Shown here: one piece after another, positions 26,295 to 44,191 of the stretch | Numbering within the stretch: the first letter of the stretch is position 1 | How the letters are laid out: each line of letters starts with the position of its first letter | Origin: Minisyncoccota bacterium | GTDB taxonomy: Bacteria; Patescibacteriota; Minisyncoccia; 2-02-FULL-40-12; GWA2-44-9 | NCBI GenBank assembly: GCA_017992005.1 | Contig: JAGOPO010000003.1 | Coordinates: 1-54,289 of the forward strand | Direction: 5' to 3' | DNA length: 54,289 bases | Program-made: the position numbers and the translations under genes | The notes under the pieces: generated by a model | The model's database searches: none | What the model saw: the letters and a program-made list of their open reading frames with translations, nothing else | Told to the model about the DNA's origin: nothing

Positions 26295-26299
26295 ATAAC

Positions 26300-26323: not shown

Positions 26324-26329
26324 TGAGGG

Positions 26330-26779: not shown

Positions 26780-26810
26780 GATGACTCCTTCATTGGAAAT
26801 GAACGCTTGA

Positions 26811-26839
26811 TATATACAATATAAAGAGAGTATCGTCAA
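26811..26839 (-). promoter_or_regulatory. Cassette promoter TTGACG-N17-TATATA
   Basis: Directly follows the terminator at 26841-26869. Confidence 0.6.
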
Positions 26840-26840
26840 T

Positions 26841-26869
26841 AAAAAACGACCCCACCGGTGAGGGTGGGG
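26841..26869 (-). terminator. Island hairpin terminator, 20-nt variant
   Basis: CCCCACCGGTGAGGGTGGGG plus a 6-nt U-run on the minus strand. Confidence 0.8.
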
Positions 26870-27011
26870 CAGGGAGGAAACGGCTAATCAAATCGCTGCG
26901 ATGTTCTTGGTGGTCCTTTCGGTACCAGGGGCCGATGGGGCCCTTTTGAAAACAAGCGATTACTTCGAGCAGCGTACCAGTCCTCCCGGCCTGGCAAACC
27001 ATCATCGACAG
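26842..27011 (-). ncRNA. Short promoter-to-terminator transcript: sRNA or about 37-aa micro-ORF
   Basis: The promoter is TTGACA-N17-TATACT (27019-27047) and the terminator is at 26850. No ATG with an RBS is present. The only in-frame option ending at 26884 is a TTG-started 37-codon ORF. Confidence 0.3.
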
Positions 27012-27131
27012 TAGATAAAGTATAGCATAGTGCAATATTATTGTCAATACCCCGGAAAATAGCAGAAAATGGGGGTGTAGTCCGTCGGCGTACTCGCCTG
27101 TGGATCATCGCCGGACGGATGCCGTCGAAAG

Positions 27132-27156
27132 AAAAACCCCACCGGTGAGGGTGGGG
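27132..27156 (-). terminator. Island hairpin terminator, 20-nt variant
   Basis: CCCCACCGGTGAGGGTGGGG plus a U-run. The stop codon lies 11 nt upstream. Confidence 0.8.
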
Positions 27157-27166
27157 AGGGAGTATG

Positions 27167-27469
27167 CTAGTGGGGGCTTCCGTCGATAGGTGAGGGGACG
27201 AGTCGCTGGTAGCCGCAGCACTCACACACCGCGAGCTGCTTCAGGGCCTGCCAGTTCATCCTGCGATCGCAGATCATGCATTCGCGGACGACTACTTCGC
27301 GATATCGCGTCATTGCTTTTCCACAATGTCGCCTCGTCCAGTAGGTGGCTGCCCCGGTGATTCCGGGATTGGGCACAAGTTGAGAATCTAAGATGGCCCA
27401 TTCCGGCTTGTGGCCGAGGCACTCTCCATGAACGCATCTTTTGGCAGGAGCGGGTGCGGTTGTTGGCAT
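27167..27469 (-). CDS. Cys-rich small protein
   Basis: MPTTAPAPAKRCVHGEC...CMICDRR...CECCGY. The start lies 1 nt after the upstream stop (TAATATG). Confidence 0.6.
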   Translation of the reverse strand: MPTTAPAPAKRCVHGECLGHKPEWAILDSQLVPNPGITGAATYWTRRHCGKAMTRYREVVVRECMICDRRMNWQALKQLAVCECCGYQRLVPSPIDGSPH

Positions 27470-27470
27470 A

Positions 27471-27659
27471 TTAGGCACGGGGCTTCTCCTCGTAGAGAAG
27501 CATGCCGATTCCGATCCACATCGCAAGCCCAATTGCGGCGACAAACAATTCGGCTGCATCAGCAGGGCGAGCTCCGCGTTGCAGGAATGTCAGGTACTCC
27601 TCCACTGAGCCGACGAGTGGAAATAGGAGCATCCAGAGAACGAAACTCAAATTGCGCAC
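27471..27659 (-). CDS. Small two-TM membrane protein (GTG start)
   Basis: A GGAGG RBS lies 6 nt before the GTG. Sequence is RNLSFVLWMLLFPLV...IGLAMWIGIGMLL. Confidence 0.5.
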   Translation of the reverse strand: MRNLSFVLWMLLFPLVGSVEEYLTFLQRGARPADAAELFVAAIGLAMWIGIGMLLYEEKPRA

Positions 27660-27695
27660 GGGCAACCTCCCGAAATGAAAAAGTGAACTATTTGT

Positions 27696-27723
27696 ATATT
27701 ACATGATTATTGGGGATTGTCAA
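27696..27723 (-). promoter_or_regulatory. Cassette promoter TTGACA-N16-TAATAT
   Basis: Read on the minus strand, upstream of 27659. Confidence 0.55.
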
Positions 27724-27764
27724 TATGCGTATGAATGGGAGTCGGCTTCGCCTTTTGGATACAC

Positions 27765-27798: not shown

Positions 27799-27874
27799 CC
27801 TGCGCGCCTATGCGCTTGAGGGCACTTGGCCAGCCACTCTCTTTCATACATACAGAATAAGGAGTGGCCAAGTG
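27799..27874 (-). repeat. Conserved tRNA 3'-flank hairpin element, copy C (76 nt)
   Basis: Near-identical to 709-784. It abuts the distal tmRNA 3'-end fragment, not the complete gene. Confidence 0.7.
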
Positions 27875-27890
27875 TGGAGATGTGGGGAAT
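27873..27890 (-). repeat. Distal direct copy of the tmRNA 3' end (T-loop to acceptor, 18 nt)
   Basis: TGTGGAGATGTGGGGAAT is identical to 28085-28102. Confidence 0.9.
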
Positions 27891-33472: not shown

Positions 33473-35134
33473 ATGTTTCGAACGTGGCTTCATACAACTC
33501 TGGAAAGCGCATACCCCGGCCATGCTTTTGATGTGCTCGTGCCGCCTGATGCCAAGATGGGTGACTACTCGGTAAACCTCGCCTTTGTCGTGGCAAAATC
33601 ACTGCAAAAAAGTCCTCGTGATGTTGCGCAAGCGATTTGCGATCTTCTCATGGCGCAGGGAGCGGAGATGATTGAGCGCTGTGAGGTCGCGGGCCCGGGA
33701 TTTGTGAATGTTACACTGCGCGATACGTGGCTGCAGGAGCAGTTTTCGCATCAGAAGATTCGCGATGTGGGGCATGGAGCGCGCGTGATTCTTGATTGTT
33801 CTGCGCCCAATATCGCCAAGCCGATGCATGTGGGGCATCTGCGCTCGACGATCATCGGCGATGCGCTCTCTCGTGTCTATCGTGCGCTGGGATACGAGGC
33901 GATGCGATGGAATTACATTGGAGATTGGGGGACGCAATTTGGTCGTCTCATTGCAGCGTTTAAGAAATACAATGAGCCCGTCGCGTCGGTGGATGATTTG
34001 GTGGCTCTCTATGTGCGGTTTCACGCTGACATGAAAGAAGATCCGTCGCTTGAGCAATTGGGCCGCGCTGAGTTTAAGAAGCTTGAAGATGGTGATCAAG
34101 AAAATCGCGCACTGTGGCTTCGCTTTCGCGAGCTTTCAATGGCGGAGTATCAGCGAACCTATGAGCTCCTCGATGTCGGATTCGAAGTCACAAAGGGTGA
34201 ATCGGAGTATGAGGCCGAGCTTGCTCCGCTCATTGAGCGATTGCAGGCCGCAGGCATTGTGCATGAGAGTGAGGGGGCTCTCGTGGTGAATCTCGACGAT
34301 GAGGGGTTGCCGGTGGCGCTCGTTCGCAAGTCCGATGGCGCAACACTCTACCTCACGCGTGATGTGGCATCGCTCGAGGACCGTATCGCAACGTATGCTC
34401 CTGCCAAGGCGTTGTATGTCGTGGCCAATGAACAGGCGCTACATTTTGAGCAGTTCTTTGCGACGACACGCAAGATGGGGATGGCGGCACTCCCTGAATT
34501 GGTGCATGTAAAATTTGGACTTGTCCTGGGAGCGGATGGAAAGAAATTTTCGACACGTGAGGGCAACGCGGTGCCATTGCAGAGTATTATCGATGAGAGT
34601 ATTTCCCGTGCCGATGCTATTGTGCGCGCGAAAAACACATCACTCACCGATGAAGAAGTGTCCCGCGTTGCGCGAGCGGTGGGAATTGGAGCATTGAAAT
34701 ACAACGACCTGCGCCAGCATCCCTATTCGGACATTGTCTTTGATTGGGATTCCATGCTGGACATGAGCGGCAACTCCGGGCCCTATCTGCAGTACACGTA
34801 TGCTCGTCTTCGCAATATTGTCGCCACCGTTGGCGTGGTTGGCGCTGCGGATCGTTCGCTGTTGGTGCATCCCGCAGAGCGTGCACTCATGCGACACCTA
34901 TTGGATTTTGAATACGCCGTGCAGACGTGCGCGGAGCATCACACGCTCAACGCGCTCGCGCTCTACTGCTATGAGCTTGCGGTGATTTGCAACCGCTTCT
35001 ATGAGCAGGTTCGCATCAATGATGATGCCAGCGACGAGCGAAAATCTGCCCGCATACTTTTGGTTGATGAGGTTACCGAAACGCTCAAGCAGGGGCTTGA
35101 GATTCTCGGCATACAAACACCGGAGCGTATCTAG
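33473..35134 (+). CDS. argS: Arginine--tRNA ligase
   Basis: APNIAKPMHVGHLRS is the HIGH region, and the anticodon-binding C-terminus is present. Confidence 0.95.
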   Translation: MFRTWLHTTLESAYPGHAFDVLVPPDAKMGDYSVNLAFVVAKSLQKSPRDVAQAICDLLMAQGAEMIERCEVAGPGFVNVTLRDTWLQEQFSHQKIRDVGHGARVILDCSAPNIAKPMHVGHLRSTIIGDALSRVYRALGYEAMRWNYIGDWGTQFGRLIAAFKKYNEPVASVDDLVALYVRFHADMKEDPSLEQLGRAEFKKLEDGDQENRALWLRFRELSMAEYQRTYELLDVGFEVTKGESEYEAELAPLIERLQAAGIVHESEGALVVNLDDEGLPVALVRKSDGATLYLTRDVASLEDRIATYAPAKALYVVANEQALHFEQFFATTRKMGMAALPELVHVKFGLVLGADGKKFSTREGNAVPLQSIIDESISRADAIVRAKNTSLTDEEVSRVARAVGIGALKYNDLRQHPYSDIVFDWDSMLDMSGNSGPYLQYTYARLRNIVATVGVVGAADRSLLVHPAERALMRHLLDFEYAVQTCAEHHTLNALALYCYELAVICNRFYEQVRINDDASDERKSARILLVDEVTETLKQGLEILGIQTPERI

Positions 35135-35550
35135 GAGCGCGCCTTCCGAAGAGTCCACACGGCCAACGCGAGGGCTCCGAGGGTGTCTGCGACCAGATCG
35201 CCCAGCGTGTCGGTGAGGTCACCACCACTGAAGTAGTGGTACAGCCATGGCGTTTGCGCGCGCGTGTAGCTAGAAAGATATTCTGCCCACTCCCAGACAA
35301 CGCCAATGAAGGCAGTCACGGAGACAACGATGAGTGCTTGTTTCCACCAGCTCATGGGGGTGACTTCATCCTGCATGAGCGAGAGCGCAAACCATGCGGC
35401 TACAGCTCCACCTAGAAAGTGGAGCGCTTTATCAAATTGAGGGATGCGGTAGTAGAGCTCGTAGTACTCGCCAATGAAAAGGCCAACAAAAATGAGTAGG
35501 AATCCAGCGATGACCGGATAGCGCGTTCGAAGATGTTTGAGCATACCCAT
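35131..35550 (-). CDS. Hypothetical 4-TM membrane protein
   Basis: 139 aa. It overlaps the argS stop and is preceded by a structured leader. Confidence 0.6.
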   Translation of the reverse strand: MGMLKHLRTRYPVIAGFLLIFVGLFIGEYYELYYRIPQFDKALHFLGGAVAAWFALSLMQDEVTPMSWWKQALIVVSVTAFIGVVWEWAEYLSSYTRAQTPWLYHYFSGGDLTDTLGDLVADTLGALALAVWTLRKARS

Positions 35551-35572
35551 AGTGTATCACGAGAAAGAAGAA

Positions 35573-35775
35573 CCCCTACTGAAACAGTAGGGGGTGCTCG
35601 GGCGACTTCGAATTTTCACGTAGCAGGGTGGTATCTCTGTGGCGACTTCGCACAGCCCGGAAGCCATGGTTCAGCGTCTCCCACCTATTTCAGCGCAGCT
35701 ACGATGTTAATTTCTCGGTCCATCATGCGGAATTCGAATCCGCTAAGGCCATACCCCTGATGTGTTGCCCGAGCG
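35573..35775 (-). promoter_or_regulatory. Structured leader of about 200 nt (riboswitch or attenuator candidate, class not recognised)
   Basis: The promoter is TTGACA-N17-TAGTAT (35804-35809 is the -35 box). A long-range helix pairs CUCGGGC with GCCCGAG. A T-arm-like hairpin GCGGA-UUCGAAU-UCCGC is complementary to AUUCGAA near the 3' end. The terminator CCCCUACUG-UUU-CAGUAGGGG plus a U-rich tail lies 22 nt before the ATG. Confidence 0.4.
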
Positions 35776-35811
35776 TTATAATACTAGCATATCGAAGGCG
35801 TTTTGTCAAAT

Positions 35812-35837
35812 AAAAACCCTCGCTGATGAAGCGAGGG
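35812..35837 (-). terminator. Cassette terminator
   Basis: CCCTCGC-loop-GCGAGGG followed by UUUUU on the minus strand. Confidence 0.75.
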
Positions 35838-35844
35838 GTGCGAG

Positions 35845-36294
35845 CTAGTTAGCTTGCAGCTTTTCGACGAGGTTGCCGAGCGTGACTTCTCCGCCGCATT
35901 CGCTCATGATCCAGGGGATGCTGAATCGGTTCGCGCATTCCTGCTTGGCGCTAAAGCCGCAGTCGCATGCCACCATGGTGACTTTCTTGCCCAGGGGCAT
36001 AATGCTCTCGATGAACGTGAGCGCTTCTTTCATGGCGCTGGCGCCGACGTAGACGTAGACGTGCTCGGCGTGTTCGATGTCAGCGCTCTGTGAGCGAACG
36101 ACCCCGTCGAGCGTTTTGCGTGCCGTTGCCATGAGCTCTTCGACTTGCTCTAGTGACAACGATGCACGAGATGCAAATGGGGAATAGCCGAGGTAGTCGC
36201 CGGTATGGCAGGCAACCGGGCCAACGACTGTGCGGCCGAGTGGCACGCCATCGATCGGATTGTATGAGATAACAAGAACTCGGGGGGTATTCAA
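35845..36294 (-). CDS. Hypothetical protein (TTG start)
   Basis: A GGAGGA RBS is present. 149 aa with no recognised motif. Confidence 0.55.
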   Translation of the reverse strand: MNTPRVLVISYNPIDGVPLGRTVVGPVACHTGDYLGYSPFASRASLSLEQVEELMATARKTLDGVVRSQSADIEHAEHVYVYVGASAMKEALTFIESIMPLGKKVTMVACDCGFSAKQECANRFSIPWIMSECGGEVTLGNLVEKLQAN

Positions 36295-36325
36295 TGGATC
36301 TCCTCCTGTGAAAAAACAGATACTA

Positions 36326-36353
36326 TAATATCACAAAAACATACAAAGTCAAT
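36326..36353 (-). promoter_or_regulatory. Cassette promoter TTGACT-N16-TATTAT
   Basis: Follows the terminator at 36366-36391. Confidence 0.55.
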
Positions 36354-36365
36354 CATTGTGACTAC

Positions 36366-36391
36366 AAAAAACCTCCGCGGTGAAGCGGAGG
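36366..36391 (-). terminator. Cassette terminator with a family-like loop
   Basis: CCTCCGC-GGTGAA-GCGGAGG (plus strand) with a 6-nt U-run on the minus strand. Confidence 0.75.
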
Positions 36392-36397
36392 CGAGGA

Positions 36398-36613
36398 TTA
36401 CTCGAGCGGTGGCAGAGGGGTCAGTGTGGTGTCGTATCCCATCACGAAGCTCATCAAAAGCGCGCATCCAATCGTGATGACGATGATGCTGTTGCGGGAA
36501 AAGGTGCACTCCCACATCGCTTTCTTGCACGACGTGCGATGATCGATCATTGCCGCCAGCGATGCAGTGACGAAGCCGAGTGTTGCCCCTAGGAGGGCAC
36601 CGAGCAGTGACAT
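36398..36613 (-). CDS. 71-aa two-TM protein with a Cys-containing loop (paralog of 36626..36841)
   Basis: TM, then IDHRTSCKKAMWEC, then TM (IVITIGCAL). Confidence 0.5.
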   Translation of the reverse strand: MSLLGALLGATLGFVTASLAAMIDHRTSCKKAMWECTFSRNSIIVITIGCALLMSFVMGYDTTLTPLPPLE

Positions 36614-36625
36614 GCGATATCCTTT

Positions 36626-36841
36626 CTAATGAAGCACAGCCCACGTGACCAGTGCGCCCTGAATGGCGCAAATCGTGGTGATGGTGAAGATCATGCCACG
36701 ACTTGCACGGCACTGATGCAGCGGAAGTGGGCAGGGGTGATCAGGTGCGCCGGGATGGTCGAGCGTGCAGCCGATGTAGGATGCGAACCATCCCAGGCCG
36801 CCCCCGATACAGCCGCCCAGTAGAACAAGCAGTGCGAGCAC
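36626..36841 (-). CDS. 71-aa two-TM protein with a Cys-containing loop (GTG start)
   Basis: A GGAGG RBS is present. TM, then LDHPGAPDHPCPLPLHQC, then TM (FTITTICAI). Confidence 0.5.
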   Translation of the reverse strand: MLALLVLLGGCIGGGLGWFASYIGCTLDHPGAPDHPCPLPLHQCRASRGMIFTITTICAIQGALVTWAVLH

Positions 36842-36901
36842 GAGACCTCCTTTGTAAATGAGAAAACATACTATACCACGAAATTATGCCCATACAAGAA
36901 C

Positions 36902-36924
36902 GCCCACCCCGAGACGGGGTGGGC
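36902..36924 (-). terminator. Hairpin after the MFS gene (9-bp stem, weak U-tract)
   Basis: GCCCACCCC-GAGAC-GGGGTGGGC. Confidence 0.55.
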
Positions 36925-36930
36925 ACTGTA

Positions 36931-38130
36931 TTATGCTTTTTGCATTTTCCAGAGTATGAGCGCGGAGCACACCATCATGACGCCTGACACATTCCAGGCG
37001 GTCGTAATGGTGGTGTAGTTTGCGATGACGCCACTGGCAAGGAGTCCCGCCATGCCGCCGATATGACTTGCAAGCGCGGCGAACGAGATGATCGTTGCCC
37101 GCTCCTGCGGCGGGATGTTGTCGTTGAGATAGACGTCGCGAAGCGGATTGATGATGCCGCGACCAATCTCGTGCATCAGAAATGCCGCAAGCACGATACC
37201 GAACGTGGACGTTGCAACGGTGGCAAGGATGCTGATGCCAGTGAGGGCTTGTGCGGCAAGCAATGCGGTGCGCTCGCTGCCGAAGAATCGCAGAAACCGC
37301 CGCGCGTAGCCTGAGCCAACCATGAGCGCAATAGACATGCTCGCAAAGATGTACCCAAGACTAGTCGTGCTCACGGTCAGTGAACGAAAGAATGGCTGCC
37401 ATTGCATGTTGAGTGCCTGCACGGCAAACGTTTGGAGGATGCTCATCGCAAGGATGAATCGTACGGCAGTGTTGGTGCGGCTGTACTGGGCGCTCTGCAC
37501 GGCAATGTCGCGCATGCGTAGGTAGCCACCGCGGAGTGATACCGTTGTTTTCACAAACTCATCTTCTTCGCGCATGTAGCGAGCGGCGAGAATGCTCGCG
37601 ATGGCCATCATGATGCCACCGGCGTGCCAGGGAAGCGCAACGCCAAAGGTCGCCAAGTAGACGCCGAGGATTGGCGCGAGGATGCCGATGCCACCGGCCA
37701 TCTGTTCTTCACGAGCGAATATGTCGGTCAGCGAGTCGCGGTACCCCTGATGATGGAGTCTATCCACGAGCCACGCTCGAAATGCGCCGCTGGCAAAGGT
37801 AAGACCGATGCCGATAATCACTTCTGCTGCCACGTATCCCCAAAATGACGTAGCGCATCCATAGGTGACCATGCCGGCAGCCACGAGTGCGCAGGAGAGG
37901 ACGTACGAGCGCTTTCGGCCGAAGACATCGGCGAACGCACCCGTGGGAATCTCACAGAGAAACAGCGTGGTGAAGAACGAGAAGTTGACAAGGTTCACCT
38001 CGAGCAAATTCAACCCGCGTGCCATGAGGAAGGTGACGTAGTAGGCGTTGGTGAACGCCATGCCAAACTTCGATACTGCGCGCAGTACGAGATAGTGACG
38101 AATCGTCTCCCGTATTTCTGGAGTCTGCAT
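36931..38130 (-). CDS. MFS transporter
   Basis: 399 aa with about 12 TM segments. The loop motif DVFGRKRS is MFS-typical. Confidence 0.9.
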   Translation of the reverse strand: MQTPEIRETIRHYLVLRAVSKFGMAFTNAYYVTFLMARGLNLLEVNLVNFSFFTTLFLCEIPTGAFADVFGRKRSYVLSCALVAAGMVTYGCATSFWGYVAAEVIIGIGLTFASGAFRAWLVDRLHHQGYRDSLTDIFAREEQMAGGIGILAPILGVYLATFGVALPWHAGGIMMAIASILAARYMREEDEFVKTTVSLRGGYLRMRDIAVQSAQYSRTNTAVRFILAMSILQTFAVQALNMQWQPFFRSLTVSTTSLGYIFASMSIALMVGSGYARRFLRFFGSERTALLAAQALTGISILATVATSTFGIVLAAFLMHEIGRGIINPLRDVYLNDNIPPQERATIISFAALASHIGGMAGLLASGVIANYTTITTAWNVSGVMMVCSALILWKMQKA

Positions 38131-38311
38131 CGGAATCCTTTCTGGTTGTGAATGAACAAAAATCGCCCTGGCGAGTGCCAGAGCGATGTGGGAGAGTCAG
38201 GTATGGAAAACGAAATTACATGACGCGCACACATCGATCGAGCACAAAAGCTGCTCCGAGAACGGAGTCCTTCTGCGTGAATTCGATTGTGGGTCGGTAG
38301 CTATGCATAAC
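38131..38311 (-). promoter_or_regulatory. 180-nt leader with an internal intrinsic terminator (attenuator or riboswitch candidate)
   Basis: The promoter is TTGACT-N17-TATTAT (38318-38346). The hairpin AUCGCUCUGGC-ACUC-GCCAGGGCGAU followed by UUUUUG lies at 38162-38187, about 30 nt before the MFS ATG. Confidence 0.4.
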
Positions 38312-38344
38312 GGTATAATAATAGCACGAAACGGTGTAAGAGTC

Positions 38345-38372
38345 AAAAAGCCCACCCCGGGGAGGGGTGGGC
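38345..38372 (-). terminator. Cassette terminator
   Basis: GCCCACCCC-GGGGA-GGGGTGGGC plus a U-run on the minus strand. Confidence 0.75.
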
Positions 38373-38386
38373 GAAGCCGGTGGTGG

Positions 38387-38683
38387 TTAGACCTTCGGCA
38401 GAGGACCGTGGAGACGGCGCGACGAGCGAGTGCCCGTGCCGGGAACGTGGCGAGGGTTCATTTGCTTGATCGCATGGACAAACGCCAGGCGTCGATCACG
38501 CGGTTCGGCGAGATCACTGACGGTCAGGACCTGGTGGGTCAAGTGGAGCAGATCAGCCTCTCCCAACGTCACCGACTTTCCATCGCACATGATGGTGACA
38601 ATCCTGCCAAGCTTGGGCTTGCCCCCGATTATCGCTACCGTGCCTTTGGGCGTCCGTCGATCCTGCATCATGGGAAGTTTCAT
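38387..38683 (-). CDS. Hypothetical small protein
   Basis: A GGAGAG RBS is present. 98 aa. Confidence 0.55.
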   Translation of the reverse strand: MKLPMMQDRRTPKGTVAIIGGKPKLGRIVTIMCDGKSVTLGEADLLHLTHQVLTVSDLAEPRDRRLAFVHAIKQMNPRHVPGTGTRSSRRLHGPLPKV

Positions 38684-38772
38684 AATCTCTCCTGAAAGGT
38701 GCTGTGCCCGCCTTGTGTGTAGCGGGGTAACTACTATACCACAGGTGAGGTATTACGCAAGCGTCTGTGGTG

Positions 38773-39120
38773 TTAGGGGGTGAGCCAATTTTCCCAGCGA
38801 TAGGCGATACGTTTGCTGGTGTCACGCAGTCTGGTGATACGAATCACATCGCCGTTGCGCAGGAGCGCGCACTTGTCGCAGGGGATCGACGCGCCGAACT
38901 CGTTTCGAGACATACGAAATTCGACGACCTCACCACCGTTGATGGTGGCGGTGAATCCGCATGCCAGCACGTTGCCGGAGCTATAGGGCGCTGTAGCCAC
39001 CACGGTGCGAACATCTGATACGGTTGCAGTGACGTCGCCGAGCGACGGATCGATAGGCTCGGGTGGGCATTGAACACTGGCGAGAAGTGCCAGTGTCAGT
39101 GAACCGAGAAGGAGCTTCAT
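38773..39120 (-). CDS. Hypothetical secreted protein
   Basis: Signal peptide MKLLLGSLTLALLASVQC. The track ORF extends through the promoter and terminator to 39321. Confidence 0.55.
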   Translation of the reverse strand: MKLLLGSLTLALLASVQCPPEPIDPSLGDVTATVSDVRTVVATAPYSSGNVLACGFTATINGGEVVEFRMSRNEFGASIPCDKCALLRNGDVIRITRLRDTSKRIAYRWENWLTP

Positions 39121-39158
39121 GGGTTGCCTTTCTATTGCATGGAAATGTGCGAAGATCG

Positions 39159-39187
39159 ATTCTACAACGAATATATGACATTGTAAA
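39159..39187 (-). promoter_or_regulatory. Cassette promoter TTTACA-N17-TAGAAT
   Basis: Follows the terminator at 39189-39214. Confidence 0.55.
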
Positions 39188-39188
39188 G

Positions 39189-39304
39189 AAAAACCCCCTG
39201 CGTAATGCAGGGGGTTGCGGCAAGCCGGAGGGCCTCGAGGGCGCCGGGCGGGTCGTGGCATTGGGACACTCCATGTGCGACGCTTCGGGTGGATCCCTAA
39301 CGTG
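39189..39304 (-). ncRNA. Short promoter-to-terminator transcript (sRNA candidate, about 115 nt)
   Basis: The promoter is TTGACA-N17-TATACT (39312-39340). The terminator CCCCCTGC-ATTA-CGCAGGGGG plus a U-run lies at 39189-39214. The only ATG ORF lacks an RBS and reads through the terminator. Confidence 0.3.
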
Positions 39305-39357
39305 CTAGATAAGTATAGCATATCGATATGTATTTGTCAACTGCCTCAAAAACCAAG

Positions 39358-39380
39358 AAAAACCGCCCATTTCTGGGCGG
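39358..39380 (-). terminator. Cassette terminator, variant B
   Basis: CCGCCCA-TTTC-TGGGCGG plus a U-run. Identical to the copy at 40005-40027. Confidence 0.8.
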
Positions 39381-39387
39381 GGAGTGG

Positions 39388-39927
39388 CTAGGCTTCGTCG
39401 GAGAATGTAACAATGGGGCAGCTCTTTGTTTTCCAACCGCGGATGTGTTCGGCGATCAGTTGTCGCGTCGAAGACTTCTCCCATTTATTCTCGACTGAGA
39501 CGCAGATGATCAGGGTCACCATAAGAGCGACGACAGCTGCGCCTAATCGTGCTACGACCTCGAGCTCGGTGTGAGTCAATGAGCTGATGAATAACACTAC
39601 AAGCTCTCCGATAAGGAAGAGGCCAGGGTAGAGGCGATATCCGAGTGCTGTGGGCCACCAGCGATAGGGAATGAGAAACTCTCGCTTTGACTCCGGTGGG
39701 TCGCTGGGCATGATTGGTGGCCGTCGACCGAACAGAAACCCAGCAAAAAAAATCATTGTCATGACGCATGCGACGAAGAAGATGATCAGCGGCCATATGA
39801 TGAGGAGTCGTAGCCAGAACCTCAAAAACAGCTGACAGGTCGTGGTGTGCGTGGGGAGTATGATGTGCTCGCACATGAAATCATAGTATGTGACACGTGC
39901 GACAAATCCCGTAGGGGAAATTTTCAT
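39388..39927 (-). CDS. Hypothetical multi-TM membrane protein
   Basis: 179 aa with a GGAG RBS. Confidence 0.6.
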   Translation of the reverse strand: MKISPTGFVARVTYYDFMCEHIILPTHTTTCQLFLRFWLRLLIIWPLIIFFVACVMTMIFFAGFLFGRRPPIMPSDPPESKREFLIPYRWWPTALGYRLYPGLFLIGELVVLFISSLTHTELEVVARLGAAVVALMVTLIICVSVENKWEKSSTRQLIAEHIRGWKTKSCPIVTFSDEA

Positions 39928-39962
39928 AACGTCTGCTCCGTTCTTGGAAACGAACGAATATA

Positions 39963-39990
39963 TTTATACTCTATTTTATTACATTGTCAA
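39963..39990 (-). promoter_or_regulatory. Cassette promoter TTGACA-N16-TATAAA
   Basis: Follows the terminator at 40005-40027. Confidence 0.6.
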
Positions 39991-40004
39991 TAAATGATGA
40001 TAAG

Positions 40005-40027
40005 AAAAACCGCCCATTTCTGGGCGG
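40005..40027 (-). terminator. Cassette terminator, variant B
   Basis: AAAAACCGCCCATTTCTGGGCGGGGAG is identical to the 39358 copy. Confidence 0.8.
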
Positions 40028-40043
40028 GGAGGGAGGAGTCGAG

Positions 40044-40430
40044 CTAGCCGCTGCTTCGCTCATCGGTGCGTACGAAGATTTCTTCGCTTGCTGCATATCG
40101 ATGTTCCTTGCCTATGAGTCGAATAATCTCTTCGCGCGCGGGGTGATTATGGAGATAATTCTCATGACCGCACGCTGGGCAGATTATGTGACACACCCTG
40201 ATTTCGCTACGAAGATAGTAGTCGCCGCCGTTGCACGAGTACGGCGCAACGTAAAACAATTCTTGAATGAATGCCCACGTCGAAAGCGGGTTGCGGGCGT
40301 GGCATTTCGTGCATTCGACGAGGTAGCTACGAACGAAATCGAGGCGTCGCTGGAGCAGTATTGCTAGCCGCTTACTTGTTGCAGCTCTATACTTCGCAAT
40401 CGATCGTTCAATCTTGTCGAGTTCCTTCAT
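40044..40430 (-). CDS. Zinc-ribbon protein
   Basis: A GGAG RBS precedes MKELDKIERS. Motifs ECTKCH ... CPACGHENY. Confidence 0.6.
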   Translation of the reverse strand: MKELDKIERSIAKYRAATSKRLAILLQRRLDFVRSYLVECTKCHARNPLSTWAFIQELFYVAPYSCNGGDYYLRSEIRVCHIICPACGHENYLHNHPAREEIIRLIGKEHRYAASEEIFVRTDERSSG

Positions 40431-40493
40431 GGAGCACTCCTTTTGAAATGTGCGATGGGACGATGTCTTGTACCGCATATTCAGCGATTTAGC

Positions 40494-40520
40494 AAAAAAG
40501 CCACCCGGTGAGGGGTGGGG
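40494..40520 (-). terminator. Island hairpin terminator, near-copy of the 22-nt variant
   Basis: GCCACCCGGTGAGGGGTGGGG plus a 6-nt U-run. Confidence 0.8.
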
Positions 40521-40526
40521 AGAGCG

Positions 40527-41009
40527 TCAGGAGAGCGTCTTGAGAAGCGCTGGACCGTGGACGATACTAATCCAGGCGATAACACTGGCGCTGATGTGGA
40601 TGGCGAGTGTTTTGCCGCGTGGAGTGGCGCATGCGATTGATAGCAGGATCGCGGTTAGTGCGGTCATACCCAAGCCTAAGCCACTGAAAATGACAGCTAC
40701 GTATACGTTACTCGACGCATGGTATCCAGAAATCACGGCAGTCAGCGGGATGCCTGCAACCATGCCAACGATAAATACGTTTTCCGAAGCCGACGCACGT
40801 ATTGGTAGCAAGAGCAGCACGCACGATAGGAGCGTGACAGCGAGAGAAATGACCAGCAGCAAGTCCGCAACGTGTTGCGCTGGTAATCCAAGGATATATC
40901 CAAGAATGACCACGATGCACGTGCAGAGGATCGCCACTGCATCAGCGATGAGAATGTTTTTCACGAGATACCTCCAGGAGGGGGTTGTTTTGTGGTAGGA
41001 ACTAGGCAT
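40527..41009 (-). CDS. Hypothetical 5-TM membrane protein
   Basis: 160 aa, hydrophobic throughout. Confidence 0.6.
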   Translation of the reverse strand: MPSSYHKTTPSWRYLVKNILIADAVAILCTCIVVILGYILGLPAQHVADLLLVISLAVTLLSCVLLLLPIRASASENVFIVGMVAGIPLTAVISGYHASSNVYVAVIFSGLGLGMTALTAILLSIACATPRGKTLAIHISASVIAWISIVHGPALLKTLS

Positions 41010-41042
41010 AATGATGCATTAGATTTATTAATTTGTCAATAC

Positions 41043-41069
41043 AAAAACCCCACCCGGTGAGGGGTGGGG
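41043..41069 (-). terminator. Island hairpin terminator, 22-nt variant
   Basis: CCCCACCCGGTGAGGGGTGGGG plus a U-run. The stop codon is 7 nt away. Confidence 0.85.
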
Positions 41070-41075
41070 AGGGGG

Positions 41076-41360
41076 CTACGAGAAGTAGACGAAGGCATCG
41101 CGGATGTCGTCGCGGGTGCCGCGAATGAACTGCACGATGCGCTCGTTGCCATTGCCGTCAAAGAATGTAGTTGCTCCACCCGAGACGGTGACCTTCCAGT
41201 TAGCAGGAATGGCAACGCCGTAGAAGAGTGGATTTGCAGCATCTTCCGTTTCCACGTCGAGTCCAAGGGAGCGGAGGCATGCCTTACTGTCGCCGGACGG
41301 GTTGATGGTTCGCCGGGCAATGTTGTGCGTTTCCGTGAGTGACGGATTATAGTTTGGCAT
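41076..41360 (-). CDS. Hypothetical small protein (second gene of a two-gene cassette)
   Basis: A GAGG RBS precedes MPNYNPSL. Confidence 0.55.
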   Translation of the reverse strand: MPNYNPSLTETHNIARRTINPSGDSKACLRSLGLDVETEDAANPLFYGVAIPANWKVTVSGGATTFFDGNGNERIVQFIRGTRDDIRDAFVYFS

Positions 41361-41370
41361 GCTGCAAACC

Positions 41371-41598
41371 TCACCCGACGATGTCGTCATCCCAGTCCTC
41401 GTGCGCAACTCCACGGATGTCTTGGTAGGCGATGAAGGTAAGGAGTGTGGCGTCGGTATGTTCTGATTCGCTACCAATATGAACGCCATTGTCGTCGCAT
41501 TTGGTTACAACACCTTTAGCATCGGTGCCATGTGCGCGGTGTATCACCACCGGAACATCTTGGAGCGCTTCGAGGTGTTGCTTGTAGGGGCTTTCCAT
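41371..41598 (-). CDS. Hypothetical small protein with an acidic C-terminus
   Basis: A GAGGG RBS precedes MESPYKQH. The sequence ends ...HEDWDDDIVG. Confidence 0.5.
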   Translation of the reverse strand: MESPYKQHLEALQDVPVVIHRAHGTDAKGVVTKCDDNGVHIGSESEHTDATLLTFIAYQDIRGVAHEDWDDDIVG

Positions 41599-41686
41599 TC
41601 GGACCCTCTTCGTTGTTAATGGTGCCAGTGATTGGCGTTGATAAAAACCATGCCACAATTATTACACATATGCAAGCTGTTTACAT

Positions 41687-41717
41687 AAAAAAGAACCCCA
41701 CCCGGTGAGGGGTGGGG
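41687..41717 (-). terminator. Island hairpin terminator, 22-nt variant
   Basis: Exact CCCCACCCGGTGAGGGGTGGGG followed by AGGGG. Confidence 0.85.
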
Positions 41718-41724
41718 AGGGGCG

Positions 41725-42387
41725 CTAAGGCTGACTGGCCGTTACGGGGCGGGCCTCTTTGAGGGCAAGGTACTTCTCGTCGGCTTCGCGCATCTCCTGA
41801 AGGGTGACTTCGGGAATGCGCGACTTGATGGCGATGACAAGGCCTCCTCCGGCGAAAGGATTGGGGCGACCTTCGACGAGCATGATGATATCCAACTGCA
41901 GGAATGCGTGGTAGATCTGTTCGAGAATCATCACTTCGGAGTCGAGGATGTCATTTTTCACTCGGATGCCGAAGTTATTACTGCTCCAGGCAGTCCAGAT
42001 CGGCTCGTCCTTGTAGACGCGCAGCTGGCTGTTGAGGTCATCAGCGGACATCTCCGTATCGCTGTCGCACCCGACGAATGGCGAGAAGCTGTACATCAGG
42101 TACGCGTAGCCATTTAGGTTCTTGTAGAACCGGAGACCCTCGGGGACCTTGGTGATCGTGCGAGCATCGGCTCCCAGTAGGTCGCCGAGTGGTGTGGATC
42201 GCCGAGCGGGAGCGTCGGGGATTCCGAACGCTTTTACGAGCGGGTCGATGCCGCGCTCGTGTTCTGCACAATAATCCCAACCGAGGTTGAAGCCGATTAT
42301 CTGGCCTCCTCCTGCGATGTTGCCCTCCGGCGTCCTTTTCACTTCCGATACGAGAGACTTCTCGCCCTTCAAGAATCCTGGTCGCAT
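41725..42387 (-). CDS. Hypothetical protein (220 aa)
   Basis: A GGAGGG RBS lies 5 nt before MRPGFLKGEK. No motif recognised. Confidence 0.6.
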   Translation of the reverse strand: MRPGFLKGEKSLVSEVKRTPEGNIAGGGQIIGFNLGWDYCAEHERGIDPLVKAFGIPDAPARRSTPLGDLLGADARTITKVPEGLRFYKNLNGYAYLMYSFSPFVGCDSDTEMSADDLNSQLRVYKDEPIWTAWSSNNFGIRVKNDILDSEVMILEQIYHAFLQLDIIMLVEGRPNPFAGGGLVIAIKSRIPEVTLQEMREADEKYLALKEARPVTASQP

Positions 42388-42423
42388 TGCACCCTCCTTC
42401 ATTTCTTGTTAAAGACTAATATT

Positions 42424-42452
42424 ATAATAACACACTTTTGTCTATTTTGCAA
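42424..42452 (-). promoter_or_regulatory. Cassette promoter TTGCAA-N17-TATTAT
   Basis: Part of the duplicated terminator-promoter module. Confidence 0.65.
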
Positions 42453-42458
42453 GCTACG

Positions 42459-42485
42459 AAAAACCCCACCCGGTGAGGGGTGGGG
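42459..42485 (-). terminator. Island hairpin terminator, 22-nt variant
   Basis: Exact copy. The stop codon is 6 nt away. Confidence 0.85.
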
Positions 42486-42490
42486 AGGGG

Positions 42491-42751
42491 CTACTTCGTT
42501 TTCTGAGGAGGCAGAAAAAGGAAGCTCGAGACGATGAGTCCTATTCCCGGTAGCTTGAGAATAAAGCTTTCTCCCGTAGCCATGAGGAGGAGTCCATATC
42601 CCAAGATGGGCAGATACTTCGTCCACCAGAAGAAGCCACTGCCAGGAACACCGAATGGGTACCGCTCAGAAAGCTGAAGCCAGGCGGCGAATGCGGCTAT
42701 TCCGATAAGGACATAGCCAAGAAGTACGACGAGAGCCAGTAGGTAGATCAC
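42491..42751 (-). CDS. Small membrane protein (GTG start)
   Basis: A GAAGGGGGG RBS is present. Sequence IYLLALVVLLGYVLIGIAAFAAW... Confidence 0.55.
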   Translation of the reverse strand: MIYLLALVVLLGYVLIGIAAFAAWLQLSERYPFGVPGSGFFWWTKYLPILGYGLLLMATGESFILKLPGIGLIVSSFLFLPPQKTK

Positions 42752-42783
42752 GGCAGACCCCCCTTCTTTGTTAAGCGGATTCG

Positions 42784-42812
42784 AATATACCACACTTTTG
42801 ATGTATTTGCAA
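42784..42812 (-). promoter_or_regulatory. Cassette promoter TTGCAA-N17-TATATT
   Basis: Homologous to the promoter at 42424-42452. Confidence 0.65.
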
Positions 42813-42813
42813 T

Positions 42814-43134
42814 CTACAAAAGCCCCACCCGGTGAGGGGTGGGGAGGGGCGAGCGTGAAGGTTGCTTGTACCCAGTAACAACGGTGCGCGTCGTTGTTGT
42901 CTCGCCGGCGGTGCCGGTGAGGGCCACAATCCAAGCCAAGACGCACAGGCCTGGGTTGGTGCCCCAGTATGCAGTCGTTGCCAGGATGGCGACCGTGAGG
43001 TGTGGGGCAAAGACGAAGCCCAGCCATCCCAACGGTCCGAACCCGGATGCGATGCCGGCAAACAGCATCGTCAGCCGAGGAAAGAACGCGATAGCGATGA
43101 GGAAGCCAAGGCCGTGAACTTGCCAGAAGTCCAT
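42814..43134 (-). CDS. Small 3-TM membrane protein
   Basis: A GGAGAG RBS precedes MDFWQVHGLGFLIAIAFF. The C-terminal 15 codons overlap the terminator hairpin, so the true C-terminus is uncertain. Confidence 0.5.
   Translation of the reverse strand: MDFWQVHGLGFLIAIAFFPRLTMLFAGIASGFGPLGWLGFVFAPHLTVAILATTAYWGTNPGLCVLAWIVALTGTAGETTTTRTVVTGYKQPSRSPLPTPHRVGLL
42818..42844 (-). terminator. Island hairpin terminator, 22-nt variant (lies inside the 3' end of the upstream ORF)
   Basis: Exact copy. The ORF 42814..43134 reads through it, translating it as ...PLPTPHRVGLL. Confidence 0.8.
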
Positions 43135-43180
43135 TGGGGACTCTCCTTTGTTAAGATAGACGCGAGTGTCTACTATTTAT

Positions 43181-43209
43181 ATTATAGCAAAAAAATCAAC
43201 CCAAGTCAA
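43181..43209 (-). promoter_or_regulatory. Cassette promoter TTGACT-N17-TATAAT
   Basis: Near-consensus promoter immediately after the terminator at 43215-43239. Confidence 0.7.
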
Positions 43210-43214
43210 TAATG

Positions 43215-43239
43215 AAACCCCACCCGGTGAGGGGTGGGG
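43215..43239 (-). terminator. Island hairpin terminator, 22-nt variant
   Basis: Exact copy. Confidence 0.8.
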
Positions 43240-43273
43240 AGGGGCGTTTGTGCACGAGCGGTCATGACGTAAA

Positions 43274-43480
43274 CTAGTCGGAATCGTTCCTGCCAAACCC
43301 TGCGATGCGGAACAGGAAGTTCAGGAGCCCTCCGCTTTCCGAATCGCTCGTCTTATTTTCATTTCGCTCCGGGAGACTACCTGAGCCCGCAGCATCCTCA
43401 CGGGCTTGATGCCAAGCTCGCGACGCTTCCTTCGGGGTCACACCGTCACGCTGTACGCTATCGTCTTTCGTCCAACCCAT
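43274..43480 (-). CDS. Small hydrophilic protein (68 aa)
   Basis: A GGAGG RBS precedes MGWTKDDSVQRDG. Confidence 0.5.
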   Translation of the reverse strand: MGWTKDDSVQRDGVTPKEASRAWHQAREDAAGSGSLPERNENKTSDSESGGLLNFLFRIAGFGRNDSD

Positions 43481-43542
43481 AGTAACCTCCTGGTATATGT
43501 GTTGGGCGCATGGTATATCATTGGTATTGCAGGGTCAACCGT

Positions 43543-43857
43543 ATGAAAAACAGAGTTTTCAAGATTCGAACTCACGAGCAGGATGCAGGTATCGTTCGGC
43601 ATGACGATGCAGATTTTACGCGAACAAAAAAGTATATCGAGGAATTGATACTTGAGGCACTCCTCGTATTTGATGCACCGGATGACGAAAAGAGCATGGC
43701 TCTTCAAAATCTTACACATCTAATTCCGGTAGCAGCGAAGCGGTATCTCGGTAACCCTAAAAATTTCGAGCACAAATTCTCGACGTATTTCACCTGGTAT
43801 ATTCACGAAGAATTTAAGAAGTATAACTGGAACCGCAAGCAAGATCCGAAGAAGTGA
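43543..43857 (+). CDS. 104-aa protein resembling only sigma-70 region 2.1-2.2
   Basis: LIPVAAKRYLGNPKNFEHKFSTYFTWYIHEEF resembles V.IAKKY....F...KFSTYATWWIRQAI. There is no region 2.4, 3 or 4. Confidence 0.45.
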   Translation: MKNRVFKIRTHEQDAGIVRHDDADFTRTKKYIEELILEALLVFDAPDDEKSMALQNLTHLIPVAAKRYLGNPKNFEHKFSTYFTWYIHEEFKKYNWNRKQDPKK

Positions 43858-43908: not shown

Positions 43909-44191
43909 TTGCGGGGGTGGGATTCGAACCCACGACCTTCAGGTTCTTTCTGTTGTCTGCCATTCCTGGCAGTGTCGGACTATCCCATCATCCGTCCCGT
44001 GTGGGCGAGGATGCTCCCATTATAGTCTCTGAACCTTCCATATGATCTATGCAATCATATGGCTTGGCTGCGGATTGCCCTCGGTTGAACCGGTGGGGTT
44101 TCCCGACAGTTTCGGGTGTTTTCGATACGTATCTCTACGTAAAGTCACAATTGCTTATGAGCCTGACGAGCTGCCGCTGCTCCACCCCGCG
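43909..44191 (-). tRNA. Initiator tRNA-Met (CAU) interrupted by a group I intron; exons 44191-44157 and 43945-43909
   Basis: The joined exons read CGCGGGGTGGAGCAGCGGCAGCTCGTCAGGCTCAT|AACCTGAAGGTCGTGGGTTCGAATCCCACCCCCGCAA. The product has the C1xA72 mismatch and is close to E. coli tRNA-fMet as I recall it. Confidence 0.85.
43946..44156 (-). ncRNA. Group I intron (211 nt, no ORF) in the anticodon loop
   Basis: The 5' exon ends in U and the intron ends in G. P7 pairs GACUAU with AUAGUC inside UCAGAGACUAUAAUGGG...GGGAUAGUCC. P9 is CUGCC-AGGAAU-GGCAG. The IGS-like GUGA lies near the 5' end. Several GAAA-closed hairpins are present. Confidence 0.7.

Follow-up and report, generated by a model that had tools for sequence, protein, structure and literature searches.

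A strain-variable island of predicted promoter-terminator gene cassettes between argS and the initiator tRNA gene in an uncultured member of Candidatus Saccharibacteria

Several described systems share properties with the locus reported here, an array of small genes at 35.56-43.56 kb in a 54-kb stretch of DNA (contig JAGOPO010000003.1; the whole stretch is hereafter called the window) that comes from an uncultured Candidatus Saccharibacteria genome. Chromosomal integrons and superintegrons, such as the Vibrio arrays built on Vibrio cholerae repeats (VCR), are likewise long arrays of small, mostly orphan open reading frames (ORFs) in one orientation, with a repeated hairpin-forming palindrome and a strain-variable content. 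Integrase-mediated islands linked to tRNA or tmRNA genes resemble the locus in lying on the 3' side of the RNA gene and in their lineage-specific content, shifted GC content at third codon positions (GC3) and short repeats of the 3' end of the RNA gene. Repetitive extragenic palindromic (REP) sequences, bacterial interspersed mosaic elements (BIMEs) and Correia-type repeats are, like the repeat described below, short intergenic palindromes, which can act as terminators or promoter carriers and as recombination substrates. Saccharibacteria and other bacteria of the candidate phyla radiation (CPR) have tiny genomes and live on other bacteria, and to our knowledge very little is known about how CPR bacteria vary their surface and interaction genes. 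The minimal mobile elements of Neisseria (Saunders and Snyder 2002, as quoted in PMC3787668) also combine variable content between conserved flanks with an absence of mobility genes and are explained by homologous recombination that follows natural transformation, and in promoter-coupled terminators (Fletcher et al., 10.64898/2026.08.19.745784) the next promoter likewise follows a few bases past the T-tract. No description of arrays such as the present one in Saccharibacteria was found in the literature.

The array was compared with the corresponding loci of related genomes. The ArgS of the window shares 96% identity with its counterpart in the metagenome-assembled genome (MAG) CAZBFM01 and 78% with the one in MAG CAYUJB01. 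The former, here called strain B (contigs L003 and L099), also has an M16 peptidase 99% identical to that of the window, and its contigs are reproduced by independent single-run contigs (L098, L100 and L103). Strain C is represented by contig L096, and the more distant relatives are contigs L004, L006 and L070. Besides the window, about 60 kb of DNA of close relatives was surveyed. The remainder of the window is housekeeping DNA (with, among others, FtsH, GyrA, S1, aminoacyl-tRNA synthetases, TsaD, IF3, ClpP, SmpB and the M16 peptidase). Taken together, the results presented below make it likely that the array is a flexible, strain-variable island of insulated units, which occupies the interval from argS and its neighbor G16 to the initiator tRNA gene, on the 3' side of the latter, and in which cassettes are exchanged through shared junctions.

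Fifteen units were found at 35.56-43.56 kb (from the tRNA side: G1, G2, G3, G4, G5-G6, G7, G8, G9, R39, G10, G11, a leader plus a major facilitator superfamily (MFS) gene, G13-G14, G15 and R35), all on the minus strand, on which every stop-to-start interval was read; over 35.1-43.9 kb a single convincing ORF has the opposite orientation. About 15 minus-strand units, each with its own promoter and terminator, had been proposed for this block by a sequence-only reading of the window, and the number and the signals were both borne out. The same reading had assigned one or two small ORFs to every cassette, which holds for 12 coding units, the other three (R35, R39 and the MFS leader) being non-coding and without an ORF of their own; it had also counted three translationally linked gene pairs, of which the block has only two, G5-G6 and G13-G14. 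The units follow a common grammar. At nearly all junctions a stop codon is followed, after 0-27 nt, by a C-rich hairpin and a T-run; the -35 hexamer of a predicted promoter begins 2-10 nt past the T-run and is separated by 16-17 nt from a (TG)nTATAAT-like -10 element, often TG-extended; and a 25-40 nt untranslated region (UTR) with AAGGAG or GGAGG leads to the start codon of one or two small ORFs. Promoter-like and terminator-like sites were counted by consensus scans and compared with the counts in shuffled sequence. At 35000-45200, 19 promoter-like sites were obtained against 7.5 +/- 3.1 in shuffles, 13 of them on the minus strand in front of ORFs and many with a TG-extended -10, together with 34 terminator-like sites against 8.3 +/- 3.4 expected. 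The excess is far weaker in the three segments that make up the remaining window (27 vs 16.6 and 31 vs 16.9; 21 vs 10.9 and 30 vs 15.7; 11 vs 10.1 and 15 vs 8.5). Within the block, 17 minus-strand terminator-like matches with at least 6 pairs lie 0-27 nt past stop codons. Exceptions to the grammar are G10, which has no terminator, G8, whose promoter is weak, and G2, which has no stop codon before its hairpin. Whole junction modules recur ahead of unrelated ORFs, as illustrated by the UTR TCGCACATTTCCAAAGGAG, and one hairpin-promoter spacer is common to the fMet array of L004 and to a second array located 3' of the tmRNA gene in the window. The array ORFs have a GC content of 0.562 and a GC3 of 0.652, versus 0.516 and 0.554 in nine housekeeping genes, a modest shift; the 1-kb GC profile of the window is unremarkable.

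Six units carry a near-identical hairpin, CCCCTCCCCACCCCTCACCGGGTGGGG, followed by a T-run. As a 22-nt element (CCCCACCCCTCACCGGGTGGGG) with CCCCTCC 5' of it, this hairpin is identical at five junctions, the sixth being a one-base variant, and a search for CCCACCCN6GGGTGGG with at most one mismatch returned six matches against none expected, all of them within 40.5-43.2 kb. Looser variants end the MFS gene (36902-36924) and G11 (38350-38372). A second hairpin, here called type B (CCGCCCAGAAATGGGCGG), is present in two copies, at 39363 (ending G9) and 40010 (ending G8); hairpins unrelated to the main family are those at 35817, 36371, 39192, 39363 and 40010. An A:U pair in the stem of the window copies is replaced by G:C at position 17022 of L003 (CCCCGCCCCTGACCGGGCGGG) and in three L004 copies (CCCGCCCCTCACCGGGCGGG; positions 14800, 14388 and 13793), so that the arms CCCCACCC/GGGTGGGG become CCCCGCCC/GGGCGGG in the L003 and L004 copies and the CTCACC loop is kept. 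This compensatory change indicates that the hairpin is maintained as a structure, and by its stem-loop, its T-tract and its position after the stop codon it fits a Rho-independent terminator. Across the 54-kb window and the roughly 60 kb from close relatives, members of the hairpin family are located in two arrays only, and housekeeping units in the DNA sampled end in unrelated hairpins, as the sequence-only reading had noted for the window. Other origins or uses of the repeat were considered and set aside. The exact 22-nt hairpin occurs in IMG/VR once each in seven contigs of 66-69% GC, which share nothing else with the window, and a phage link based on these matches was rejected as convergent. 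A role as a DNA-uptake sequence was rejected because the copies are clustered in two arrays and not dispersed. Derivation from the 3' end of the tRNA or tmRNA, suggested by eye by a C-rich match of 8-9 nt only, was judged too weak. No RAYT (REP-associated tyrosine transposase) was found in the window or in the 60 kb of close relatives.

The slot between the conserved flanks varies in every relative examined, in agreement with the cassette turnover for which the sequence-only reading had proposed such a comparison. ArgS and G16 on one side, and the initiator tRNA (tRNA-fMet), tRNA-Met and M16 genes on the other, are kept in the window, strain B, L004, L006 and L070, with G16 adjoining ArgS in L003, L004, L006 and L070 at 95, 70, 57 and 55% amino acid (aa) identity, respectively. 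Its length is 9.5 kb in the window and falls to 4.3 kb in L004 and to about 2.3 kb in both L006 and L070. In relatives whose ArgS is 78% and 62% identical to that of the window, the flanks are kept and none of G1-G15 is present; unrelated genes occupy the slot in the more distant relatives, over 1.7-3 kb. Window and strain B are collinear at 90% nucleotide identity over 33459-39474. Beyond 39474 only blocks match, at 40493-41727 (94%), 42460-42842 (94%) and 43139-43237 (90%). The first two, which contain G5-G7 and G3 (the latter on contig L103), have both ends at a family hairpin. The third, a promoter plus UTR module that corresponds to L099 5740-5838, ends at a hairpin on one side and at the G2 start codon on the other, and the same promoter/UTR stands before G2 in the window and before an unrelated lipoprotein, X94, in strain B; X94 is also found in L004. 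Read from the tRNA, the window order is P115 (reverse), G1, [module]G2, G3, G4, G5-G6, G7, G8, G9, R39, G10 and so on; that of strain B is a 194-aa gene (reverse), G3, [same module]X94, G5-G6, G7, ..., a 155-aa cassette, a 188-aa cassette, G8', G9', R39, G10 and so on; and that of strain C is ..., tm52-G6'', 188aa', G8'', R39, without G9. Hence, relative to the window, G3 has moved with respect to the promoter/UTR module and has a different neighbor ahead of it in strain B, G4 is missing between X94 and G5, the window lacks the 155-aa and 188-aa cassettes of strain B, and the position of P115 is taken by the 194-aa reverse gene, which is unrelated to it. G1 is absent from the strain B contigs, and G6 is paired in strain C with a different first ORF, tm52. 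Alleles of G8 share 30% (strain B) and 55% (strain C) aa identity with the window copy, and the G9 allele of strain B shares 40%.

The cassettes that are shared between strains have ratios of nonsynonymous to synonymous substitution rates (dN/dS) of 0.04-0.51 and, judged from these values, are real genes. For the strain B copies of G10-G16 the range is 0.04-0.21 (G10 0.10, G11 0.09, G15 0.14, with 93 and 86% aa identity for G10 and G11); G3 has 0.23, and cassette 5, 94% identical at the nucleotide level, has 0.29 (G5) and 0.09 (G6). G7, whose start in the window is likely the GTG at 40964, is 96% identical at the aa level in strain B, and G13 and G14 are 94 and about 80% identical. Synonymous divergence (dS) of shared cassettes spans 0.04-0.87, versus 0.31-0.39 for ArgS and M16, a spread that points to mosaic histories. 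Separately, G2 is translated through its terminator hairpin (42814-42860, minus strand, the protein ending in SPLPTPHRVGLL), the hairpin of cassette 2 sitting inside the 3' end of the ORF. A read-through of this kind is the footprint expected from an ORF that has recombined into a pre-existing promoter/terminator slot.

A simpler account of the block is that it represents ordinary architecture, that is, a patch of orphan genes punctuated by terminator-promoter pairs and undergoing ordinary decay, with the hairpin a locally duplicated terminator that plays no part in mobility. The proximal half agrees with this account: at 35.1-39.5 kb, window and strain B have the same genes in the same order at 90% nucleotide identity, with dN/dS of 0.04-0.21, and the hypervariability that the sequence-only reading had suggested for the whole locus does not extend to this part, which is under purifying selection. 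The terminator-then-promoter geometry is, moreover, also seen at ordinary units, namely tRNA-Glu (19251/19218) and G16, promoter-coupled terminators are reported to be widespread in bacteria (preprint 10.64898/2026.08.19.745784), and no mobility gene was detected. Indeed, no integrase, transposase, recombinase or phage structural gene, none of which had been visible to the sequence-only reading either, was found among the proteins scanned with Pfam and PHROGs and the Pfam-labelled gene calls of related contigs, a set that excludes several window ORFs at 13-15, 19-21 and 28.5-33.4 kb. The account agrees poorly with the distal half, at 39.5-43.9 kb, where shared order gives way to differences cassette by cassette, contrary to the outcome that the sequence-only reading had listed as a refutation, and the hypervariability does hold: at least six cassette-level differences are packed into 4.5 kb between strains whose flanking proteins are 96-99% identical, and an ORF swap under a conserved promoter/UTR, the reordering of G3 and the partner swap of G6 are among them. 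It also has to face the spread of dS between neighboring cassettes, a hairpin family found only in two arrays in the DNA sampled, and a GC3 that differs from that of housekeeping genes. On balance, ordinary architecture is an unlikely explanation for the block as a whole.

If the block is instead the flexible island proposed above, each unit would be autonomous, comprising a sigma70-type promoter with an extended -10, a UTR with a Shine-Dalgarno sequence, and one or two ORFs or a small RNA closed by a Rho-independent terminator. The terminator T-tract that abuts the next -35 would insulate the units from each other, and the gain or loss of a neighbor would therefore leave the expression of a unit unchanged. 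Many junctions are near-identical copies of one hairpin/promoter module, and would thus also supply short, portable homology. Cassettes could be deleted, inserted, reordered and swapped at these junctions by RecA-type or homology-facilitated recombination, with the incoming DNA probably acquired by natural transformation from the pool of the same species. For cultivated Saccharibacteria, natural competence and the integration of incoming DNA by homology are documented (PMC10633639). The hot spots themselves were probably seeded by older, integrase-type insertions at the 3' ends of the tRNA and tmRNA genes, and a smaller sister island lies 3' of the tmRNA.

Several observations weigh against this proposal. 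Strains B and C are known partly from short metagenomic contigs that break at the hairpin, their fragmentary state being due to assemblies breaking at the repeat; only three strains were compared, the cassette orders of strains B and C are incomplete, and chimeric joins across 30-nt repeats in these contigs are a residual possibility. Breakpoints also fall away from the hairpins, at a start codon (G2/X94), between a promoter and the second ORF of a pair (G5 versus tm52) and inside G9, so that part of the turnover may reflect illegitimate recombination or simple divergence. In its proximal half, the block is stable from one close strain to the other. Finally, identical stretches at the junctions are only about 30-100 nt long, which is short for efficient RecA recombination.

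The start-codon, bicistron and G9 breakpoints argue, in addition, against a recombinase with a fixed crossover point, and thus bear on a second alternative, a site-specific cassette system in which the hairpin is a single-strand site comparable to attC or to REP and IS200/IS605 ends and the recombinase is encoded elsewhere. That unrelated genes are bounded by a hairpin of which five 22-nt copies are identical and one is a variant, that the homology blocks shared by strains mostly stop within a few nt of a hairpin, that the loop is conserved across species as the stem covaries, and that the arrays lie at tRNA and tmRNA 3' ends with att-like repeats could all be read in this way. Yet every hairpin has a T-tract and occupies the position of a terminator, other cassettes use unrelated hairpins, the junctions read without a GTTRRRY-type core, and no tyrosine, serine or HUH recombinase was present among the scanned or labelled proteins of the window and related loci, some window ORFs being outside this set. 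Such a system is very doubtful as an explanation. The same low probability applies to the more specific idea that the hairpin, given its invariant loop (CTCACC), its covarying stem and the CCCCTCC beside it, is more than a terminator and acts as the recombination site for a new Patescibacteria cassette-capture system, an "expression-ready integron" with an unlinked recombinase, single-strand transformation DNA as a possible substrate and arrays nucleated at tRNA-fMet and tmRNA.

The initiator tRNA gene next to the array is split in its anticodon loop by a group I intron, which is about 209 nt long and lies at about 43944-44154 (Rfam Intron_gpI: 60.7 bits, 43956-44168, minus strand). ARAGORN missed the split gene and called, in the window, only a plus-strand tRNA-Met at 44970-45042; in strain B, identical exons are joined without an intron and called by the program (L099 4806-4878). 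With this intron-less sister allele and the C1:A72 and CAU features, it follows that the array is indeed located 3' of the initiator tRNA, in line with the sequence-only reading, with the plus-strand ORF P115 intervening. Next to the tRNA, a 229-aa helix-turn-helix protein, P229 (44290-44979, plus strand), has a LAGLIDADG-like motif (LYLAEG) and weak best matches to I-DmoI. Strain B, with its 99% identical M16, has neither the intron nor the P229 ORF, and L004 has both (15170-15490 and 15512-16255); intron and free-standing putative homing endonuclease thus look like a presence/absence polymorphism. Neither of the genes beside tRNA-fMet, P115 and P229, has a Phage_integrase or resolvase catalytic domain.

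The second array, 3' of the tmRNA, had escaped the sequence-only reading and follows the same grammar over four units. Its hairpin, CCCCACCCTCACCGGTGGGG, is one base pair shorter, with copies at 26303, 26849 and 27137, and its contents are small zinc-ribbon paralogues, one small transmembrane (TM) protein and one RNA unit, R27. The CxxC zinc-ribbon paralogues (25560-26839, minus strand; L003 2165-3962) share the motif C..C...Y.....A..C.QRRL and number two in the window and three in strain B, and p90 and Zn134 stand in opposite order in the two strains. Because the tmRNA array carries both the grammar and the hairpin family, neither is unique to the fMet block; the grammar had been taken as special to that block, and its occurrence at a second locus and across species makes it, with the hairpin family, a property of the lineage and not of one locus.

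Both RNA genes invite a third alternative, in which the arrays are decayed integrative elements (prophages, integrative and conjugative elements or satellite-like elements) that inserted in tRNA-fMet and tmRNA, lost their integrase and structural genes and left moron-like genes behind. Single genes flanked by a promoter and a terminator do resemble phage morons, the GC3 of the array is shifted, and one distant homologue of G4 has a gene for a phage-type DNMK kinase as its neighbor. The 3' ends of RNA genes also recur as direct repeats: an exact 18-nt repeat at the tmRNA, located at the head of the second array (two matches against none expected), and, in L004, an exact 21-nt repeat of the tRNA-fMet 3' end (14987-15007 vs 15178-15198, 191 nt apart). 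However, the tmRNA repeat lies 212 nt downstream of the gene and encloses only about 190 nt, not the array, and the 3' end of tRNA-fMet is not repeated in the window, even with 3 mismatches allowed over 23 nt; the two repeats look like att-like scars of integrase-type insertion, not like brackets of the arrays. In PHROGs, the 22 array proteins gave only three weak single-member matches (best E 2.9e-05), none to a family annotated as structural, the exact hairpin was seen in IMG/VR only in the unrelated GC-rich contigs mentioned above, and the proximal cassettes are under purifying selection. Decayed elements are accordingly considered highly improbable as the source of the present arrays, and the features of the preferred island with exchange through shared junctions are collected in Table 1.

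Table 1. Features of the array at the initiator tRNA gene and of the second array at the tmRNA gene (window coordinates; promoters and terminator hairpins are predicted)
Feature	Position	Strand	Details
P115, sole ORF in opposite orientation, between tRNA and array	43510..43857	+	ORF list; shared bidirectional terminator 43878-43894
Cassette 1	43218..43538	-	promoter 43538-43510; G1 (68 aa, soluble) 43274-43480; family hairpin 43218-43239
Cassette 2	42814..43209	-	promoter/UTR module 43209-43135; G2 (106 aa, 2-3 TM) 42814-43134; hairpin 42823-42844
Cassette 3	42464..42812	-	promoter 42812-42784; G3 (86 aa, 2 TM) 42491-42751; hairpin 42464-42485
Cassette 4	41696..42452	-	promoter 42452-42424; G4 (220 aa, soluble orphan) 41725-42387; hairpin 41696-41717
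Cassette 5	41048..41680	-	promoter by eye; G5 (75 aa) 41371-41598 and G6 (94 aa) 41076-41360, linked; hairpin 41048-41069
Cassette 6	40501..41039	-	promoter 41039-41011; G7 (4 TM; stop 40527); hairpin 40501-40518
Cassette 7	40010..40500	-	weak promoter; G8 (128 aa) 40044-40430; type-B hairpin 40010-40027
Cassette 8	39363..40000	-	promoter; G9 (179 aa, 3 TM) 39388-39927; type-B hairpin 39363-39380
Cassette 9, non-coding	39192..39340	-	promoter 39340-39312; R39 RNA, about 115 nt; terminator 39192-39216
Cassettes 10-11	38350..39187	-	promoter 39187-39159; G10 (115 aa) 38773-39120; second promoter; G11 (98 aa) 38387-38683; hairpin 38350-38372
Cassette 12	36902..38346	-	promoter 38346-38318; leader; MFS gene G12 36931-38130; hairpin 36902-36924
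Cassette 13	36371..36910	-	promoter; linked G13 36626-36841 and G14 36398-36613 (71 aa each, 2 TM, Cys-rich); hairpin 36371-36392
Cassette 14	35817..36352	-	promoter 36352-36325; G15 (149 aa, soluble orphan) 35845-36294; hairpin 35817-35837
Cassette 15, non-coding	35573..35809	-	promoter 35809-35781; R35 RNA, about 204 nt; terminator 35573-35593
G16, DUF2238-like membrane protein	35131..35550	-	conserved proximal flank; convergent with argS (33473-35134, +)
Initiator tRNA-Met(CAU), head of array	43909..44191	-	C1:A72 mismatch in sequence; exons as in strain B tRNA
Second array, four units	25500..27760	-	3' of tmRNA (28084-28436); same grammar
Direct repeat of tmRNA 3' end (28085-28102)	27873..27890	-	exact, 18 nt

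The cargo of the fMet array is, by prediction, mostly orphan envelope proteins, accompanied by small zinc-ribbon proteins, an MFS exporter under attenuator control and small RNAs. Half of the 16 proteins G1-G16 are predicted membrane proteins, and the N-terminus of G10 is signal-peptide- or lipoprotein-like. Scans against Pfam, PHROGs, PADLOC and NCBIfam yielded nothing above noise for 21 of the 22 array proteins, the sole clear profile match being the MFS transporter G12 (Pfam MFS_1, 9.5e-25), the one transporter that had been recognized within the array beforehand. No defence family was matched in the profile scans of array proteins, and no paralogues were found within the fMet array at E < 1e-4. 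Among 5.8 billion proteins, G4 has four matches, one of them a 99% identical near-self copy and the others three distinct homologues with uninformative gene contexts, and G15 has a single relative (two clusters in all) and is an orphan. The AlphaFold2 model of G4 is unusable (predicted local distance difference test score, pLDDT, of 33). G8 combines an N-terminal long helix with a four-Cys zinc ribbon and belongs to a family of proteins of about 120-150 aa with at least 233 representative clusters, four invariant Cys and the motif W.FIQ...GGDYW...CHI.CP.C..NYIYNHP; its AlphaFold2 model has a pLDDT of 94, and a fold search of the PDB returned no solved relative (best E = 1). The effector role put forward by the sequence-only reading is not supported, the cargo being orphan almost throughout; plausible functions are strain-specific ones at the surface, in host contact or in defence.

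Three minus-strand segments have a predicted promoter and terminator and no credible ORF: R35 (35573-35776), R39 (39192-39306) and, in the tmRNA array, R27 (26845-27015). R35 is 99.0% identical to its L003 counterpart in strain B, where the flanking genes are 81-94% identical, and has a fold z-score of -2.7; R39 is conserved in strains B and C, and R27 in L003 and L004, reaching as far as the relative whose ArgS is 78% identical. Each of the three is a candidate for a new small RNA. The leader of the MFS gene (38131-38312, minus strand, about 180 nt) contains a 30-codon upstream ORF (38307-38215) and a putative attenuator hairpin (38162-38187) and is 97% identical in L003. A homologous leader in L004 (12901-13125, minus strand) precedes a GNAT acetyltransferase gene, keeps the length of the upstream ORF and has compensatory changes in the terminator stem. 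The MFS/GNAT leader is predicted to be an attenuator, with the classic signature of one that responds to a ligand or an antibiotic. Rfam searches, even at E up to 5, assigned no family to R35, R39, R27 or the MFS leader.

On the proximal flank, a TG-extended -10 (TGATACACT) stands directly past the T-tract of the R35 terminator (35544-35600, minus strand), and its equivalent in L004, TGCTACAAT, is located 7 nt ahead of the G16 start codon. G16 probably starts at the ATG at 35544, on a leaderless mRNA. Two further observations concern other parts of the window. A single protein encoded at 11385-12542 (plus strand) has both a type IV secretion pilin domain and an SLT transglycosylase domain and is a part of the machinery resembling type IV secretion systems in Patescibacteria. 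An ORF-poor stretch of about 1.8 kb between metG and tatD (49606-51405) has the highest GC skew of the window and a strong minus-strand promoter-like site at 50525-50498; its L004 equivalent measures only about 160 nt, and the stretch may represent either an insertion that has become pseudogenised or a long non-coding region.

For a reduced genome, a locus of this kind would be a compact way of holding a fast-changing pool of accessory genes as plug-and-play units, whose terminator-promoter junctions apparently serve as handles for recombination as well. If so, it would mark a place in which to seek strain-specific determinants of host range or defence, and would offer natural insulated insertion sites and portable promoter-terminator parts for Saccharibacteria genetic tools. 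The locus also yields the candidate RNAs, the predicted attenuator common to exporter and acetyltransferase genes and the 233-cluster zinc-ribbon family described above.

The locus differs in several respects from each of the systems that it resembles. The sequence-only reading had already held that it is not an integron, on the grounds that the cassettes bear promoters and that intI and attC are missing, and the present analysis concurs: in contrast to chromosomal integrons, it has no intI among the scanned proteins and neither Pc nor attI, a promoter and a ribosome binding site are present on every cassette, the repeat is a G+C-rich stem with a T-tract and without R''/L''-L'/R' cores (RYYYAAC...GTTRRRY), breakpoints are not confined to the repeat, and the array abuts a tRNA or tmRNA gene. 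Unlike REP sequences, BIMEs and Correia-type repeats, the hairpin copies are limited to two arrays in the DNA sampled and are each located at the 3' end of a gene, with no RAYT or transposase found and no target-site duplications. Promoter-coupled terminators match the G16 junction exactly in their published geometry (10.64898/2026.08.19.745784); most junctions of the array, in contrast, abut the -35 and not the -10, which places the predicted start site about 35-40 nt downstream instead of about 10 nt, and the published elements are neither repeated modules nor tied to gene turnover. With respect to tRNA- and tmRNA-linked islands, the differences are that no integrase was found, that no att repeat brackets the array in the window and that the array has an internal modularity with repeated junctions; if the proposed exchange is correct, a recombinase-free, cassette-level variant would be added to the known flexible genomic islands. 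The Neisseria minimal mobile elements differ in their host, here a CPR bacterium, and in that the present locus has homology also inside the variable region, in its repeated junctions, which would therefore allow exchange cassette by cassette and not only replacement of the whole region. Given the competence of Saccharibacteria and their integration of DNA by homology, the locus may thus be viewed as a finer-grained analogue of the Neisseria minimal mobile elements.

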